64,000 bases of DNA from Escherichia coli (GTDB lineage Bacteria > Pseudomonadota > Gammaproteobacteria > Enterobacterales > Enterobacteriaceae): NCBI RefSeq assembly GCF_044324785.1, contig NZ_CP172127.1; one strand, 5' to 3'. The notes under the pieces are model-generated. The model made no database searches. It had not been told where the DNA came from and saw nothing but the letters and a program-made list of their open reading frames with translations. A program made the translations under genes and the position numbers. Shown piece by piece: positions 10,860 to 52,724 of the stretch (its first letter is position 1; every line of letters starts with the position of its first letter).

Positions 10860-11873
<1,014 letters not shown>

Positions 11874-11877
11874 GTCG

Positions 11878-12012
11878 GATTGGTCGCTCGCGGTGCATCC
11901 GACACTGGCAGTGTTGCCTGATGCGCCGCTATTCGCGTCTTATCAGGCATATACCAGAGATAGCGAACCATAGGTCGGATAAGGCGCTCGCGCCGCATCC
12001 GACAAATGTGTT
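11878..12012. repeat. REP/BIME cluster between ruvB and znuB
   Basis: Three REP-like units (ggtcgctcgcggtgcatccgaca; gcctgatgcgccgc...gcgtcttatcaggc; ggtcggataaggcgctcgcgccgcatccgaca). Confidence 0.7.
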
Positions 12013-12022
12013 CAGCGATAGA

Positions 12023-12808
12023 TTAGCTGGCTTGCTTTTTCATCATACTGATAATAAATAACAGTGCCGCACATAGCACCACCGACGGACCCGCCGGCGT
12101 ATCGTAAAATGCGGAAAAGGTTAAACCGCCAGTTACTGCCACCATTCCCACCAAAACAGCGACACCGGCCATCTGTTCCGGCGTGCGGGCAAAGCGACGC
12201 GCAGTAGCTGCAGGAATAATTAGCAACGAAGTAATAATCAACGCGCCGACAAATTTCATCGCTACACCAATCGTCAATGCCGTCACCAGCATCAACAACA
12301 ATTTCACGCGCTGTAATTTCACTCCATCAACAAACGCCAGATCCGGGCTAATCGTCATCGACAGCAAATTGCGCCATTGCCAGAACAAAATCGCCACCAC
12401 GATGACCACGCCAATTGCAATAGAGATGAGATCTTCTGGCGTCACTGCCAGCAAATCACCGAACAGGTAAGCCATCAAATCAACACGAATATTAGACATC
12501 AGACTAACGACAACCAGGCCCAGCGACAGGGCACTGTGCGCCATAATCCCTAATAACGTGTCGATCGCCAGCTGTGGACGCTTCTCCAGCCATACCAGAC
12601 CGCCCGCCAGCAGCAGCGTAACTGCAATCACCGCATAGAATGGATTCACGTCCAGCAACAAACCAAACGCGACGCCAAGTAATGAGGCATGAGCCAGCGT
12701 ATCACCGAAATAAGACATACGACGCCAGACCACAAACGAACCCAGCGGACCCGCGGCACAGGCGAGCATGATCCCGGCTAACCAACCGGGAAATAATAAT
12801 TCAATCAT
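12023..12808 (-). CDS. znuB: Zinc ABC transporter permease
   Basis: 261-aa membrane protein; 4-nt overlap with znuC. Confidence 0.93.
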
Positions 12809-13560
12809 GAGCGATCATTTCCCCGACGCAAAACAATTCGTCCCTGTAAATCGTGACGATGATTATGATGATGGCGATAGATACCCAGTTGTTCAGCACC
12901 ACGAGGACCAAACATAGAAATAAACTCCGGATGCAGGGAAACAACTTCCGGTGTACCGGAACAACAAATGTGGTGATTCAGGCAAAGCACTTCATCGGTT
13001 TTTGCCATTACCAGATGCAGATCGTGAGAGACCATTAAAACGCCACAATCCAGTTCGCGACGCAACTGGTCAATAAGGTCATATAACGCCACCTGACCAT
13101 TCACATCCACGCCCTGAGTGGGTTCATCCAGCACTAATAATTGCGGTCGATTTAACAATGCTCGCGCTAACAATACACGCTGTGTTTCGCCACCCGAGAG
13201 CTTTTGCATCGGTGCGTTAATCAGATGCCCGGCCTGGACACGTTTCAGTGCAGGCAAAATATCTTCTTTATGTGTGCCAGGGCGTAAGCGTAAAAAACGG
13301 TTTACGGTCAGTGGCAACGTGGTGTCGAGATACAGCTTCTGCGGTACATAGCCGATGCGCAGTTTTCCGTTGCGCTTGATAACCCCTTCATCGGGTGTTA
13401 CCAGCCCGAGCACTACCCGTACCAGTGTCGACTTACCTGCGCCATTTGGCCCAAGTAAAGTCAAAATTTTTCCAGGTTTAAGTTCCAGCGACACATCAGA
13501 GAGGACGCGGCGTTGGCCAAAAGAAACCGAGACATTTTCCAGGGAAACCAGACTTGTCAT
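12805..13560 (-). CDS. znuC: Zinc ABC transporter ATP-binding protein
   Basis: 251-aa ABC ATPase (Walker [10 protein letters not shown], signature LSGGETQR). Confidence 0.93.
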
Positions 13561-13586
13561 GTTAATTTTAGTCTTGCAGTAGTCAT

Positions 13587-13609
13587 GAAATGTTATAATA
13601 TCACACTTC
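13587..13609. promoter_or_regulatory. Zur box in divergent znuCB/znuA promoter region
   Basis: GAAATGTTATAATATCACACTTC resembles Zur consensus GAAATGTTATANTATAACATTTC; sits between the divergent start codons. Confidence 0.65.
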
Positions 13610-13638
13610 TCATATTCATTACGATGATTGGTCGCATT

Positions 13639-14571
13639 ATGTTACATAAAAAAACGCTTCTTTTCGCAGCATTATCCGCCGCTCTCTGGGGCGGTGCAAC
13701 ACAGGCCGCAGATGCTGCCGTTGTCGCTTCGCTTAAACCCGTTGGGTTCATCGCTTCTGCCATTGCTGATGGGGTAACAGAAACGGAGGTTTTACTACCT
13801 GACGGCGCTTCAGAACATGATTATTCACTGCGTCCATCAGATGTAAAACGCTTACAGAACGCGGACTTAGTCGTTTGGGTTGGCCCGGAGATGGAAGCGT
13901 TCATGCAAAAACCGGTAAGTAAATTACCTGAAGCGAAACAGGTAACGATTGCGCAGCTAGAGAATGTGAAACCGCTGCTGATGAAAAGTATTCACGGCGA
14001 TGATGATGATCACGACCACGCGGAAAAAAGTGACGAAGATCACCATCACGGCGATTTCAACATGCATCTTTGGCTTTCCCCAGAGATAGCGCGGGCTACA
14101 GCGGTTGCAATCCATGGAAAATTAGTGGAACTTATGCCGCAAAGTCGAGCCAAACTTGACGCCAACCTGAAGGATTTTGAGGCACAATTAGCCTCAACCG
14201 AAAAGCAGGTTGGTAACGAGCTCGCGCCGCTCAAGGGGAAAGGTTATTTCGTTTTTCACGATGCTTACGGCTATTTCGAAAAACAGTTCGGACTGACACC
14301 GCTTGGTCATTTTACCGTTAACCCTGAGATTCAACCTGGCGCGCAGCGTTTACATGAAATAAGAACACAGTTGGTTGAGCAAAAAGCAACCTGCGTTTTT
14401 GCTGAGCCACAGTTCAGGCCAGCGGTCGTTGAGAGCGTCGCACGAGGGACATCCGTTCGTATGGGAACGTTGGATCCCCTGGGGACGAATATCAAACTGG
14501 GTAAAACAAGCTATTCAGAATTCCTGAATCAATTAGCCAACCAGTATGCGAGCTGCCTGAAAGGAGATTAA
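13639..14571 (+). CDS. znuA: Periplasmic zinc-binding protein ZnuA
   Basis: ORF 13513..14571 trimmed to ATG at 13639 (310 aa, signal peptide [23 protein letters not shown]); His/Asp-rich loop [21 protein letters not shown]. Confidence 0.9.
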
Positions 14572-14586
14572 TGAGGAAGTGATTAC

Positions 14587-15909
14587 GTGCAACAGATAGC
14601 CCGCTCTGTCGCCCTGGCGTTTAATAATTTACCGCGACCACACCGCGTTATGTTGGGGTCGCTCACCGTTCTTACTCTGGCCGTCGCTGTCTGGCGGCCC
14701 TATGTTTATCACCGCGATGCCACGCCAATTGTCAAAACCATTGAGCTGGAACAGAACGAAATTCGTTCGCTCTTACCTGAAGCCAGTGAGCCGATTGATC
14801 AAGCTGCACAAGAAGATGAAGCCATTCCCCAGGATGAACTGGATGACAAAATCGCCGGTGAAGCGGGCGTGCATGAATATGTTGTTTCCACTGGCGATAC
14901 GCTAAGCAGCATTCTCAATCAGTATGGTATTGATATGGGTGATATCACCCAACTGGCTGCTGCCGACAAAGAATTGCGTAACCTGAAAATCGGTCAACAA
15001 CTCTCCTGGACATTAACCGCGGACGGCGAACTGCAGCGCCTCACTTGGGAAGTGTCTCGTCGTGAAACCCGAACCTATGACCGTACTGCCGCTAACGGTT
15101 TTAAAATGACCAGCGAAATGCAGCAAGGAGAGTGGGTTAACAATCTGCTGAAAGGTACCGTCGGGGGAAGCTTTGTTGCCAGCGCCAGAAACGCCGGTTT
15201 AACCAGCGCTGAAGTGAGCGCAGTGATTAAAGCCATGCAGTGGCAAATGGATTTCCGCAAACTGAAAAAAGGCGATGAATTTGCGGTGTTAATGTCACGA
15301 GAAATGCTTGATGGTAAACGTGAGCAAAGCCAGCTGCTGGGCGTACGTTTGCGTTCAGAAGGTAAAGATTATTACGCAATCCGCGCTGAAGATGGCAAAT
15401 TCTACGATCGTAACGGTACTGGTCTGGCGAAAGGATTCTTGCGATTCCCGACGGCGAAACAGTTCCGTATCTCGTCTAACTTTAACCCGCGTCGTACTAA
15501 TCCGGTGACTGGTCGTGTTGCGCCACACAGAGGTGTTGATTTCGCCATGCCACAGGGTACGCCGGTGCTTTCAGTGGGTGACGGTGAAGTGGTGGTTGCC
15601 AAACGCAGTGGCGCAGCAGGTTATTATGTGGCTATTCGTCATGGTCGCAGCTACACCACGCGTTATATGCACTTGCGCAAGATCCTGGTGAAACCGGGAC
15701 AGAAGGTGAAACGTGGCGACCGTATCGCGCTTTCCGGTAATACCGGACGTTCAACCGGGCCGCATCTGCACTATGAAGTATGGATAAACCAGCAGGCCGT
15801 AAACCCGCTGACGGCAAAACTGCCGCGTACCGAAGGGCTGACCGGCTCCGATCGTCGCGAATTCCTGGCGCAGGCCAAAGAGATTGTGCCGCAGCTACGG
15901 TTTGATTAA
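14587..15909 (+). CDS. mepM: Murein DD-endopeptidase MepM (M23 peptidase, LysM domain)
   Basis: 440-aa ORF, GTG start; M23 motifs HRGVDF and HLHYEV. Confidence 0.9.
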
Positions 15910-15925
15910 TTAACATCCATTCGCA

Positions 15926-15956
15926 GCCGGTACGCAGTCAGTACCGGCTTTTTTTA
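15926..15956 (+). terminator. Rho-independent terminator after mepM
   Basis: gccggtac-gcagtca-gtaccggc hairpin followed by T7 run. Confidence 0.75.
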
Positions 15957-16028
15957 TTTGGTGCGGGGCAAGTTGCGCCGCTACACTATCACCAGATTGA
16001 TTTTTGCCTTATCCGAAACTGGAAAAGC

Positions 16029-17084: not shown

Positions 17085-17128
17085 TGAACTGTAGGCCGGA
17101 TGAGGCGTTTTCGCCGCATCCGGCAACG
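17085..17128. repeat. REP element
   Basis: gtaggccggatgaggcgttttcgccgcatccggca matches REP consensus. Confidence 0.7.
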
Positions 17129-17131
17129 TAC

Positions 17132-18701: not shown

Positions 18702-19571
18702 TTAGCGATCGTCACTTAAATTAAGTAACTGCTTATCAAAACGCGATTCCTTCAGCGCTTCCTTGACCCGCTTCAAGTTATCTCTGAATTTTGCACCGCG
18801 TCGCAAAGTAAATCCTGTCGCCAGCACATCTATCACGGTCAGCTGTGCAAGTCGAGAAACCATGGGCATATAAATGTCAGTATCTTCCGGTACGTCGAGG
18901 GTAATTGCCAGCGTTGCTTCCCGGGCGAGCGGGGTACCCGCAGAGGTGAGGGCAATCACCATGGCGTCGTTTTCGCGAGCCAGCTGCGCCAGCTCGACCA
19001 GATTTTTTGTTCTTCCAGTGTGAGAAATCAGCACCACCACGTCTCCGTCGCTACAATTCATACAACTCATGCGTTGCAGCACGATATCATCGGAGTACAC
19101 CACCGGAACATTAAAACGAAAGAACTTATTCATCGCATCGTGGGCAACGGCGGCTGAAGAGCCTAATCCGAAAAAGGCGATTTTTTTTGCCTGAGTGAGC
19201 AAGTCGACGGCGCGGTTGATGGCAGATTTATCCAGTGAATGACGGACATGATCGAGCGTTGCCATTGCGGACTCAAATATTTTCCCCGTGTATGATTCAA
19301 CGCTGTCATCTTCATTGACGTTGCGATTAACATAGGGAGTGCCATTCGCCAGACTTTGTGCCAGATGAAGTTTAAAATCAGGAAAACCGCGCGTGTCCAT
19401 GCTGCGACAGAAACGATTCACCGTCGGTTCGCTAACATTGGCTTCCAGCGCCAGAGCAGCAATACTCGAATGGATCGCGTTATCGGGCGAAGCCAGAATG
19501 ACCTCGGCAACTTTGCGCTCTGATTTGCTCAAATGTTCCAGCTGAGACTGGATTTTTTCCAGCATATTCAT
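18702..19571 (-). CDS. hexR: RpiR-family transcriptional regulator HexR
   Basis: 289-aa ORF, HTH + SIS domain; divergent from zwf. Confidence 0.92.
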
Positions 19572-34690: not shown

Positions 34691-34777
34691 AACATTTAAG
34701 CTGATGACCACCGCGCTTTTTATTGACCATTTTGCACGCAAACTGGAAAACCTGGCGTCGTCATCTATTCTTAAAGG

Positions 34778-34880
34778 GCAAGGCAACTAAGCCTGCATTA
34801 ATGCCAACTTTTAGCGCACGGCTCTCTCCCAAGAGCCATTTCCCTGGACCGAATACAGGAATCGTGTTCGGTCTCTTTTT
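34778..34880 (+). ncRNA. sdsR: SdsR (RyeB) sigma-S-dependent small RNA
   Basis: Sequence gcaaggcaactaagcctgcattaatgcc...gaccgaatacagg-aatcg-tgttcggtc-TCTTTTT recognised as SdsR; sigma-S-like -10 CTATTCTTAA just upstream; terminator hairpin plus U-run at 3' end. Confidence 0.85.
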
Positions 34881-35014
34881 ATCTGTTAAAAGCCAGAAGC
34901 ATTCCCTTCGCTGACTTTATAGTCAACCATAACACACACTCTACTGTCTGAGTCCAGCGTTTTTTAACATTCTTGTTAAGATTATGTGATCTTTAGCGCG
35001 GGAGGAAAATATTG

Positions 35015-49723: not shown

Positions 49724-50392
49724 TCCTTCCTCAATCTTGAGTAACCCCGTCGTTGAAGGGTTACTCAATTCATCCTGATTATACGCACTGCCATGGTGCA
49801 ACTGCTTCAAATTAAAACTCTGGTCTGACTTCAAATAATTATCATATTATTTATTTGCGTAACGGGATATCAGAAAAAGATATTTAGCCCATTAATTTAT
49901 TAGGATGTTTACATCGGATTTGTGATTAAGTGTGGTATTATTTATTAGCGAAACGTTTCTCTCTTGATTTTTTTGCGCATTCATCAATTTTTCTTATTTT
50001 AAATTTACAATACCTTTGGCGATTGACTTCTCTTTGGGGTGATTGATAGCCGTTAACTGACTGTTTTATGAGAAAAAGTGATATAACTTTTTATTCATTG
50101 CATAGCAGAAAATGTGATATTGCACGCACTATGTAATAACTTCTCCCATTGGCCTGGAACAACTGAACTTATTGAACTATGTTAGAAAATACGTCAGTTT
50201 AAGTATCTGCCTGAACTGGCAAGGTTAAGCACAATGATATATCGGCGCGTATTCCGTTGCATAAGTGTGCAAAAAAAGTGGAAGACGTATCGAGATTTGT
50301 GCGTCTGATCGAGACATGTTTAAAAATGGCTTGCCATAATTAACGTTGTATGTGATAACAGATTTCGGGTTAAACGAGGTACAGTTCTGTTT

Positions 50393-50536
50393 ATGTGTGG
50401 CATTTTCAGTAAAGAAGTCCTGAGTAAACACGTTGACGTTGAATACCGCTTCTCTGCCGAGCCTTATATTGGTGCCTCATGCAGTAATGTGTCAGTTTTA
50501 TCTATGTTATGCCTGCGGGCGAAGAAAACAATCTAA
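50393..50536 (+). CDS. yobF: Small protein YobF (47 aa)
   Basis: ATG..TAA encoding [47 protein letters not shown], 12 nt upstream of cspC; below ORF-track cutoff. Confidence 0.8.
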
Positions 50537-50548
50537 GGAATTTTTCAA

Positions 50549-50758
50549 ATGGCAAAGATTAAAGGTCAGGTTAAGTGGTTCAACGAGTCTAAAGGTTTTG
50601 GCTTCATTACTCCGGCTGATGGCAGCAAAGACGTGTTCGTACACTTCTCTGCTATCCAGGGTAATGGTTTCAAAACTCTGGCTGAAGGTCAGAACGTTGA
50701 GTTCGAAATTCAGGACGGTCAGAAAGGTCCGGCAGCTGTTAACGTAACAGCTATCTGA
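50549..50758 (+). CDS. cspC: Cold-shock-domain protein CspC
   Basis: 69-aa ORF; RNP motifs KGFGFI and VFVHF. Confidence 0.96.
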
Positions 50759-50803
50759 TCGAATCCACTGATCTGAAGTGTGAATACGCTTCAATCTCGC
50801 TAT

Positions 50804-50830
50804 AAAGCCTCGTCGAATGCGAGGCTTTTT
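50804..50830 (+). terminator. Rho-independent terminator after cspC
   Basis: aaagcctcg-tcgaat-gcgaggcttt hairpin followed by T-run. Confidence 0.8.
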
Positions 50831-50923
50831 ACTTTGCTTTCTCTTCGCTCCAGTCGTTCGGATATTTGCCCGCCGCGTGATTCGCGTTACACTTGCGGCC
50901 TTTAGTATCCTGCCGGAGTTGTC

Positions 50924-52521: not shown

Positions 52522-52724
52522 GGGCGCAACCTTAACATATTTTGAGAATATAAAACAACTGTTGGAATATATTATTTCATTGCTTTATTGATAACGATTT
52601 TCATTTAGATTTATATATCAATGAAACGTTAAAATAAATAACAAATAAGGGAAGGGGTAATATAGCCTAAGCTATGTCTGATTATTAAAAATACACTAAA
52701 CATAGCTTTGGCTAAATTGATAAC

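Follow-up and report, generated by a model that had tools for sequence, protein, structure and literature searches.

Results

Organization of the znu-mepM locus

The locus analyzed here lies within a 64-kb stretch of Escherichia coli DNA (the whole of which is hereafter termed the window) and comprises two divergent gene pairs, znuC-znuB and znuA-mepM, the coordinates and associated features of which are compiled in Table 1. The znuC and znuB reading frames overlap by 4 nt at the znuB start and, according to Pfam, the presence of cognate ABC-3 permease and ABC ATPase genes beside znuA makes the ZnuABC importer set complete. RefSeq annotates identical genes in identical order, and 5422 of the 5426 complete E. 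coli genomes contain at least 80% of the locus; the nearest match of the window is strain N3 (99.7% identity), of a minority E. coli lineage. A scan against Rfam returned just sub-threshold matches to the REP-like naRNA4, which flank the znu-mepM locus. This is an ordinary, well-studied and already known zinc-uptake locus of E. coli and its relatives, as the preliminary description of the sequence had recognized in calling it a known arrangement, and it is documented as such in RefSeq and in the literature (Gilston 2014; Murphy 2019; Kharadi & Sundin 2020; Maunders 2024).

Table 1. Genes and sequence features of the znu-mepM locus (window coordinates)
Feature	Position	Strand	Description
znuB	12023-12808	-	Zinc ABC importer permease, 261 aa; ORF call, Pfam ABC-3 (PF00950) 1.5e-90, RefSeq
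znuC	12805-13560	-	Zinc ABC importer ATPase, 251 aa; ORF call, Pfam ABC_tran (PF00005) 2.1e-29, RefSeq
Divergent regulatory spacer znuC/znuA	13561-13638		78 bp, from sequence
Zur operator	13586-13609		23-bp Zur box (13587-13609) and two-dimer motif (13586-13605)
Overlapping extended -10 elements	13591-13603		Inside Zur box; relaxed hexamer scan
znuA	13639-14571	+	Periplasmic zinc-binding protein, 310 aa; Pfam ZnuA 1.8e-65
His/Asp-rich loop of ZnuA	13993-14055	+	Residues 119-139
Candidate sigma-E-type promoter	14101-14161	+	-35 GGAACTT (14127-14133), -10 CCAAA (14150-14154), start G (14161)
Structured RNA segment	14161-14227	+	Just 3' of candidate start; RNA 3' ends at 14220 and 14227
Frozen synonymous sites, second stretch	14332-14427	+	z -1.61
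znuA-mepM junction	14572-14586	+	15 nt, TGAGGAAGTGATTAC, Shine-Dalgarno GAGGAAG
mepM (yebA)	14587-15909	+	LysM/M23 zinc DD-endopeptidase, 440 aa, GTG start
Intrinsic terminator closing the znuA-mepM unit	15925-15959	+	9-bp GC-rich stem, then T7ATTT

The Zur operator and the divergent promoters

The Zur-like palindrome that had been noticed in the divergent spacer corresponds to one Zur box, GAAATGTTATAATATCACACTTC, which matches 21 of the 23 positions of the gamma-proteobacterial pseudo-palindromic consensus (GAAATGTTATA-N-TATAACATTTC), with two mismatches. The structure-based two-dimer motif of Gilston 2014 (TGWNAYRWTATAWYRTNWCA) is matched exactly at a site overlapping this box. A Zur motif scan, proposed as a check in the preliminary description, identified this box as the sole match in the 64-kb window at three or fewer mismatches and gave no matches in 100 shuffles. 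The box is identical to that of the K-12 operator, and the single spacer difference with respect to K-12, a G for T at 13626, lies outside it. Across related loci (n=77) the spacer measures 76-79 bp and contains an invariant core, ATGTTATAATATCAC. The K-12 operator is the very one on which the Zur-DNA crystal structure was solved and which has been footprinted, and both zinc-dependent Zur binding and repression have been demonstrated on it; znuC is repressed about 7-fold by Zur in vivo, and repression at the znu operator is among the weakest of the regulon (Gilston 2014, PMC4219657).

Owing to the weakness of the -35 elements, the spacer yielded no sigma-70 promoter in a standard promoter scan. 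Within the Zur box, a relaxed hexamer scan revealed two extended -10 elements, TGtTATAAT on the plus strand (13591-13599) and TGaTATTAT on the minus strand (13603-13595), which would presumably serve znuA and znuC, respectively. Sigma-70 sites overlapping the Zur box have been described (Kharadi & Sundin 2020).

ZnuA and MepM

The ZnuA protein shares 306 of 310 residues with the K-12-derived structure PDB 2OGW, and all its zinc ligands (E59, H60, H143 and H207) were found and are kept in 75-76 of 76 relatives. The acidic His-rich loop pointed out in the preliminary description was located as well: its 21 residues include 6 His and 10 Asp/Glu, a composition that is kept across genera (7-9 His, 9-13 Asp/Glu) while the sequence itself is hypervariable, with 71 variants among 76 sequences. 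MepM presents the expected architecture, with an N-terminal membrane anchor and OapA_N, LysM_OapA/LysM, Csd3_N2 and Peptidase_M23 (PF01551, 1.1e-35) domains. Its five catalytic residues (H314, D318, H362, H393 and H395) were all found, and its closest solved relative is ShyA (7.4e-81).

The znuA-mepM junction and its conservation

The reported spacing of 15 nt between znuA and mepM is exact, and no terminator-like site was found on the plus strand between the two genes; RNA folding of the junction is no better than that of shuffled sequence (z +0.72). The hairpin that follows mepM, by comparison, folds with -17.4 kcal/mol (z -3.4) and is the same as in K-12. The comparison covered 81 znuA-mepM loci from at least 20 genera, with 80 Enterobacteriaceae genomes that all keep the znuA-mepM order; distant loci came from a representative search and contig look-ups, and a homologous-protein search gave only relatives of at least 87% identity. 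Of these loci, 75 have a 15-nt gap and the other 6 a 12-nt gap, with the sequence (C/T)GAGGAAGTGAATAC, and the junction and first 18 mepM codons are nearly invariant. A hairpin followed by a T-run lies 3' of mepM in 80 of 80 related loci, the detector calling a terminator at the junction in only 2 of the 80, and the gene order persists down to 48% ZnuA identity.

Published work on expression agrees with this layout. Murphy 2019 describes the conserved znu-endopeptidase arrangement, stating that znuA and mepM "may be cotranscribed", and cites two E. coli microarray studies in which mepM is induced on zinc starvation and a Y. pestis zur mutant in which yebA is up. The Erwinia znuA-eagA operon is Zur-regulated (Kharadi & Sundin 2020), mepM is induced under zinc limitation in Klebsiella (Maunders 2024), and a published mepM-linked salt phenotype is altered by SNPs in the Zur site and in the mepM ribosome-binding site. 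For a bicistronic E. coli transcript, Kharadi & Sundin (2020) cite Graham 2009. Co-transcription of znuA and mepM, which the preliminary description had suggested, thus appears probable given the conserved gap and terminator placement and the published zinc-responsive expression of mepM. Of the two features that the same description had set against it, namely a terminator or an independent promoter separating both genes, the terminator is absent; a candidate promoter, on the other hand, was found inside znuA.

A candidate sigma-E-type promoter within znuA

Synonymous sites of znuA are almost frozen over a first stretch at 14077-14178 (z -1.84, beyond all 2000 permutations), which contains the best sigma-E-like site of the locus. 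Its pattern, GGAACTT-N16-CCAAA-N6-G, is unique in the window in its exact form, for which simple arithmetic predicts about 0.015 occurrences per 64 kb, and is preceded by an invariant block at 14101-14126. In the sigma-E model of Rhodius 2006, a GGAACTT -35 and a TCAAA -10 are separated by a spacer of 16 nt; the discriminator has 5-6 nt, the distance between the -35 and +1 is 26-27 nt, and transcription begins at a purine. The candidate reproduces the optimum of this geometry (spacer 16, discriminator 6, 27 nt from -35 to +1, start G), matching 7 of 7 positions at the -35 and 4 of 5 at the -10, where the central C and the AAA are kept. Of 76 sequences, 73 retain GGAACTT and 60 the full motif, the -10 being altered in 16. 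The motif is also found in a relative whose ZnuA is 70% identical, in which GGAACTT and GCCAAACTTGACG are unchanged and spacer bases between -35 and -10 have changed.

At the predicted start, exactly 6 nt past the -10, Kim 2012 mapped a weak transcription start with 2 reads and without sigma-E induction. It is listed there at K-12 position 1940085(-), and window position 14161 corresponds to 1942061(-) in NC_000913.3. In the zinc-supplemented medium of that study no start was seen at the znuA promoter, and two weak starts inside znuA were assigned to yebA. Three transcriptome studies report induction of yebA/mepM with the sigma-E response: yebA is up 1.9-fold on rpoE overexpression, it is also reported by Kabir 2005, and secretion stress raises it together with the sigma-E regulon. 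According to Shimada 2017, yebA figures in RegulonDB among the targets of RpoE, and an RpoE SELEX peak falls inside mepM (ca. 15484), about 1.3 kb downstream of the candidate. The text of Rhodius 2006 does not report a promoter at this site.

Other constrained or structured stretches of znuA

The RNA just 3' of the candidate start folds with -27.3 kcal/mol (z -4.27), and an alignment of 67 sequences has 84% of its cells paired. Two pairs of the structure at 14161-14214 are nonetheless absent in most genera and covariation is only modest, and we do not claim a conserved RNA. The 3' ends bordering this segment were mapped by Term-seq (Adams 2021), and their location inside znuA implies that rightward transcripts need not all reach mepM.

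The second frozen stretch contains a hairpin (GCAAAAA/TTTTTGC stem) and the conserved rare codons ATA, AGA and AGG, and is conserved in one of the compared loci (L083) and not in another (L085). Its hairpin folds no better than shuffled sequence (z -0.71), and the same applies to the opposite strand. A search of the 3' half of znuA for sigma-70-like promoters, with a threshold of 8 matches out of 12, found none. Overlapping small ORFs were considered as a cause of the frozen codons, and none had an ATG start or a matching extent.

Discussion

The main finding reported here is the correct reading of a textbook locus, which serves as a positive control for the initial inspection of the sequence and changes nothing in what is known of it. 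It is highly probable that this is a zinc locus in which Zur controls znuCB and znuA-mepM, with read-through into mepM. With zinc in sufficient supply, two zinc-loaded Zur dimers would occupy the pseudo-palindrome at 13586-13609 and cover the overlapping -10 elements of the back-to-back promoters, repressing both the leftward znuC-znuB and the rightward znuA transcripts. Upon zinc scarcity Zur would leave the DNA, allowing synthesis of the ZnuBC importer and of periplasmic ZnuA, the His/Asp-rich loop of which assists zinc capture. The rightward transcript is expected to run through the 15-nt junction, since there is no terminator between znuA and mepM and the first one lies just past mepM, for which translation would start at a GTG preceded by a Shine-Dalgarno sequence of its own. 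Read-through would then provide more of a zinc-requiring M23 endopeptidase at precisely the time when its cofactor is scarce. We infer both the physical bicistronic transcript in E. coli and this adaptive rationale. That the adjacency of znuA and mepM is mere inherited gene order, with mepM expression indifferent to zinc, seems very improbable. A distant locus (L084, 49% MepM identity) does have mepM without znuA upstream, and with lpxM still downstream, but the conservation of gap length and sequence in 81 of 81 loci, of terminator placement and of gene order down to 48% ZnuA identity all argue against such indifference, which is already contradicted by the published zinc-responsive expression.

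MepM is a major housekeeping endopeptidase and must hence also be expressed while Zur represses. Judging from the sequence and from the published start, a Zur-independent input to mepM probably derives from the sigma-E-type promoter in znuA that has its predicted start at 14161. The evidence suggests that this promoter, itself probable, and Zur-controlled read-through both exist and do not constitute mutually exclusive alternatives. On balance, we lean towards a broader arrangement in which mepM has two inputs, Zur-controlled znuA read-through and a conserved sigma-E-type promoter in znuA codons 163-172, and in which the second frozen element and the frozen first 18 mepM codons would both fall within the long 5' leader of the transcript from that promoter, as possible further control points.

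The balance between these inputs might nonetheless be different, with mepM expressed mainly from its own sigma-E-type promoter (14127-14161), perhaps aided by the second frozen stretch, and the Zur-controlled promoter contributing little, so that mepM would respond chiefly to envelope stress and not to zinc. The optimal spacing of the motif, the start mapped at 14161 in zinc-replete medium, the synonymous sites frozen across the promoter, the induction of yebA by rpoE overexpression and in secretion stress and its listing in RegulonDB are all congruent with this idea. We nevertheless consider it unlikely, given that zinc- or Zur-dependent changes in mepM/yebA/eagA mRNA have been published for four genera, that sigma-E induction stays below 2-fold and that the start is supported by 2 reads. 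In addition, the -10 is CCAAA instead of TCAAA and varies among relatives, the SELEX peak does not lie at the candidate, and the promoter does not appear in the text of Rhodius 2006. A different reading, which we regard as possible though not probable, is that both frozen stretches act at the RNA or translation level, through mRNA structure, RNase or sRNA sites, or rare-codon pauses for ZnuA export or folding, the sigma-E motif being a coincidence of V-E-L-M codons. The second stretch fits this, as it lacks promoter-like sequence, conserves rare codons and confines the variable positions of its hairpin to the loop; the first stretch is bordered by a segment that folds strongly and by mapped RNA 3' ends, and the block at 14101-14126 extends farther upstream than sigma-E promoters usually do and is not uniformly A/T-rich. 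In the relative with 70% ZnuA identity, however, the two blocks are kept and the spacer is changed, and hence a two-block promoter fits better than a continuous RNA element. The exact position of the published start and the low expected frequency of the motif also speak against coincidence.

If the two-input arrangement is true, the sigma-E-type promoter would keep mepM expressed and stress-inducible when zinc is plentiful, and would answer the question posed by Murphy 2019 on a Zur-independent promoter inside znuA. Its confirmation would explain how an essential-class housekeeping endopeptidase can be placed behind a repressible zinc promoter and would connect zinc starvation with envelope stress through a single gene; it would also carry the warning that mepM may be disturbed when znuA is deleted or synonymously recoded.

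Comparison with known systems

The znuCB/znuA-mepM locus of E. coli K-12 (b1859-b1856; operator in Patzer & Hantke 2000 and Gilston 2014) presents the same genes, order, strands, 78-bp spacer, Zur box, 15-nt junction and terminator, and both its junction and its mepM-lpxM spacer are base-for-base identical to those of the window; the differences include the one spacer base mentioned above and four residues of ZnuA with respect to PDB 2OGW. The znuA-eagA/znuCB locus of Erwinia amylovora (Kharadi & Sundin 2020) shares the 78-bp spacer and a Zur box over sigma-70 sites, with a gene for an M23/LysM endopeptidase, eagA, directly after znuA and there co-transcribed and Zur-regulated; an extra c-di-GMP-dependent input has been shown in Erwinia. 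ShyB of Vibrio cholerae (Murphy 2019) is similarly a MepM-family endopeptidase under Zur control that responds to zinc starvation. Its gene differs in standing alone on a genomic island with its own Zur box, whereas mepM in the window would borrow the znuA promoter. As regards the candidate site in znuA, a parallel can be drawn with the sigma-E promoter of MicL, which is reportedly located inside cutC: in both cases, sigma-E-type -35 and -10 elements lie in the coding sequence of the upstream gene and are preserved by constraint on synonymous sites. MicL is an sRNA, whereas the likely product of the candidate start inside znuA would be an mRNA leader running into mepM, with a predicted dependence on sigma-E.

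Organization and conservation of the locus

The divergent znuCB and znuA-mepM units constitute an already known arrangement, described as a conserved znu-endopeptidase association by Murphy et al. 2019, and the preliminary description was right to present them as such. All four gene products score far above the curated cut-offs of their Pfam families. The layout is common to the window and K-12, and of 5426 complete E. coli genomes, 5422 contain at least 80% of 12023-15909 by megablast, the genes being annotated as znuB, znuC, znuA and mepM, with strain N3 as the top match (99.7% identity). Among 5425 E. coli genomes, just 499 share at least 99% identity with the locus, the others 95-99%; among species representatives, the window MepM is closest to that of 'Escherichia sp. 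MOD1-EC7003' (99%), followed by the E. coli representative (96%). Judging from sequence similarity, the window probably originates from a divergent Escherichia lineage.

Features of the znuCB/znuA-mepM locus
Feature	Coordinates	Strand	Remarks
znuB	12023-12808	-	ORF; Pfam ABC-3
znuC	12805-13560	-	4-nt overlap with znuB; Pfam ABC_tran
Divergent spacer	13561-13638		78 bp; one base differs from K-12 (13626), outside the Zur box
Zur box	13587-13609		23-bp consensus, 2 mismatches
znuA	13639-14571	+	Pfam ZnuA
mepM	14587-15909	+	GTG start; Pfam OapA_N/LysM/Csd3_N2/Peptidase_M23
Candidate sigma-E promoter	14101-14161	+	GGAACTT (14127-14133), 16 nt, CCAAA (14150-14154), 6 nt, G (14161)
Low-codon-entropy segment, znuA	13639-13689	+	Permutation test
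Low-codon-entropy segment, znuA	14077-14178	+	z -1.84, beyond all 2000 permutations
Low-codon-entropy segment, znuA	14332-14427	+	z -1.61
Low-codon-entropy segment, mepM	14587-14640	+	Codons 1-18; z -1.58
Canonical terminator 3' of mepM	15925-15959		-17.4 kcal/mol, z -3.4

For comparison, a single scan of species-representative genomes provided 80 loci from at least 20 Enterobacteriaceae genera, their MepM being 87-99% identical (81 loci with the window). In all 81, znuA lies directly upstream of mepM on the same strand and mepM starts with GTG; 75 loci have a 15-nt gap and six a 12-nt gap, the junction sequence being conserved, and the znuC-znuA spacer spans 76-79 bp around an invariant core, ATGTTATAATATCAC. 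The arrangement persists in the distant relatives L083 and L085, down to 48% ZnuA identity, and a third, L084 (49% MepM identity), carries mepM without znuA upstream. The adjacency of mepM and lpxM is retained in L084 (2601-5002, 89-nt gap) and L085 (2601-4941, 10-nt gap). Because it survives in L084, where upstream znuA is absent, this link between a cell-wall enzyme and a lipid A acyltransferase may be older than that with znuA.

ZnuA is identical to PDB 2OGW at 306 of 310 residues and keeps the ligands E59, H60, H143 and H207. Its acidic His-rich loop, correctly recognized beforehand, maps to residues 119-139 (13993-14055); the composition is kept (7-9 His, 9-13 Asp/Glu) and the sequence almost never (71 variants among 76 sequences from the window and the related loci L003-L082), and most other genera have a loop four residues longer than that of Escherichia.

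Zur operator and znuA-mepM junction

The Zur-like palindrome anticipated in the 78-bp spacer corresponds to the sole match to the Zur consensus in the 64-kb window, with no matches in 100 shuffles, and 13586-13605 matches exactly the two-dimer motif obtained by Gilston et al. from a Zur-DNA crystal structure. The operator has been footprinted and crystallized with Zur, and its roughly 7-fold repression of znuC is among the weakest of the regulon (Gilston et al.). On the + strand a perfect TATAAT preceded by TGn marks the middle of the box, and TGnTATTAT lies on the - strand; both presumed -10 elements are thus within the box and Zur sits on both, an overlap also stated for the E. coli and Erwinia spacers (Kharadi 2020). 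The Gilston motif has a further, weak match at 52560-52579 (+; TGTTGGAATATATTATTTCA); with 2 mismatches and about 0.17 matches expected by chance, it is probably noise.

Kim 2012 lists a znuC-directed start, supported by 3 reads, at 13632 (-), 72 nt before znuC; this would place the Zur box downstream of the start and is at odds with the extended -10 inside the box. Another start directed towards znuC (13812, 3 reads; Kim 2012) lies just downstream of an antisense promoter-like site in znuA (13847-13812, -; TTTACA-16-AATAAT, 10/12 matches), the sole strong match of the standard scan and a site that other genera do not conserve at synonymous positions.

The 15-nt gap between znuA and mepM, TGAGGAAGTGATTAC, is the same as in K-12. 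As had been proposed, it contains no terminator-like site; folding of the junction RNA does not exceed that of shuffled sequence, and mepM is followed by a hairpin and T-run in all 80 related loci, the same detector being positive around the junction in only two. Co-transcription is therefore supported, and we infer a bicistronic znuA-mepM transcript in E. coli. The last ~40 nt of znuA and the junction (14545-14586), together with mepM codons 1-18, are almost invariant at all codon positions, and on this conservation 14545-14640 looks like a translation-initiation or regulatory region for mepM.

Synonymous constraint and a candidate sigma-E promoter within znuA

Codon entropies at conserved amino acids, normalized per amino acid and tested against permutations in znuC, znuA, mepM and lpxM, fell below the 5% family-wise threshold in four segments (see table), none of them in znuC, lpxM or mepM past codon 18. 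Third codon positions are invariant there across tens of bases, including the rare codons CTT, TTA, ATA, AGA and AGG. The segment at 14332-14427 holds conserved ATA, AGA and AGG codons together with a hairpin on a GCAAAAA/TTTTTGC stem; neither promoter-like sequence nor a convincing overlapping ORF was found in it that would account for the constraint, and its RNA fold is unexceptional.

The segment at 14077-14178 spans a sigma-E-like site whose synonymous positions are frozen across at least 20 genera. According to Rhodius 2006, sigma-E promoters combine GGAACTT and TCAAA with a strongly preferred 16-nt spacer, a 5-6 nt discriminator, 26-27 nt from -35 to +1 and a purine start; the candidate fits in all respects save one -10 base, and it is the top sigma-E-like site of the locus and the sole exact match to GGAACTT-N16-CCAAA-N6-G in the window. 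Of 76 distinct znuA sequences, 73 retain GGAACTT and 60 the complete motif. In L083 (70% ZnuA identity) spacer bases are altered, leaving GGAACTT and GCCAAACTTGACG unaltered, and in L085 (48%) the site is absent. A transcription start mapped by Kim 2012 at K-12 1940085(-) is equivalent to 14161, in a zinc-supplemented medium where no start from the znuA promoter was recorded. Overexpression of rpoE raises yebA (mepM) 1.9-fold and lpxM 1.4-fold, yebA being also reported by Kabir 2005; autotransporter stress likewise raises yebA together with the sigma-E regulon, and Shimada 2017 marks it as a RegulonDB RpoE target.

Against this evidence, the start at 14161 is weak (2 reads), the induction of yebA is small, the -10 element is imperfect and variable, and the promoter is absent from the Rhodius 2006 report. 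Moreover, the RpoE SELEX peak lies ~1.3 kb downstream, within mepM, in the vicinity of an antisense GGAACTG (15466). On balance, we lean slightly towards a functional sigma-E-type promoter within znuA, starting at 14161, through which mepM expression may be Zur-independent and stress-inducible.

RNA from 14161 to 14230 is strongly folded (-27.3 kcal/mol, z -4.27), with only moderate conservation of its pairing, and Term-seq 3' ends map at 14220 and 14227, just beyond the stem (Adams 2021); RNA 14161-14227 is a possible stable leader, or else an intermediate of decay.

Other sites in the window

Within mepM, Kim 2012 assigns to lpxM a start at 15385 (+; 10 reads), preceded by a weak TTGCGT-16-TATTAC (15335-15385, +), and the SELEX peaks that Shimada 2017 gives for RpoE and RpoF fall at ~15484, close to the same antisense GGAACTG. 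Transcripts from ~15385 would still run into the terminator 3' of mepM. A further sigma-E-like match, to the consensus only (19507-19541, +; GCAACTT-N15-TCAAA, 11/12), lies by our estimate near the hexR-zwf region. Rfam matches above the gathering score, at 34740-34884, 50373-50833 and 1714-1755, correspond to the SraC/RyeA and SdsR/RyeB sRNA pair, a cspA-type thermoregulator leader, probably that of cspC, and the ES036 sRNA. Sub-threshold naRNA4 matches at 11873-12016 (ruvB-znuB interval) and 17094-17131 (after lpxM) are presumably REP-type extragenic palindromes.

Relation to published zinc control of mepM

Zinc control of mepM is documented in several systems. Induction of mepM by zinc starvation was seen in two E. 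coli microarray studies, one of them including qPCR, which Murphy et al. 2019 cite alongside work on yebA in a Y. pestis zur mutant; znuA-eagA is under Zur control in Erwinia (Kharadi 2020), mepM is induced in Klebsiella (Maunders 2024), and in a 2026 preprint SNPs in the Zur site and in the mepM ribosome-binding site alter a mepM-linked salt phenotype. Within this framework, the candidate promoter is a modest contribution that can be tested, bearing on a question stated by Murphy et al. 2019, for whom the existence of a Zur-independent promoter inside znuA was unclear.
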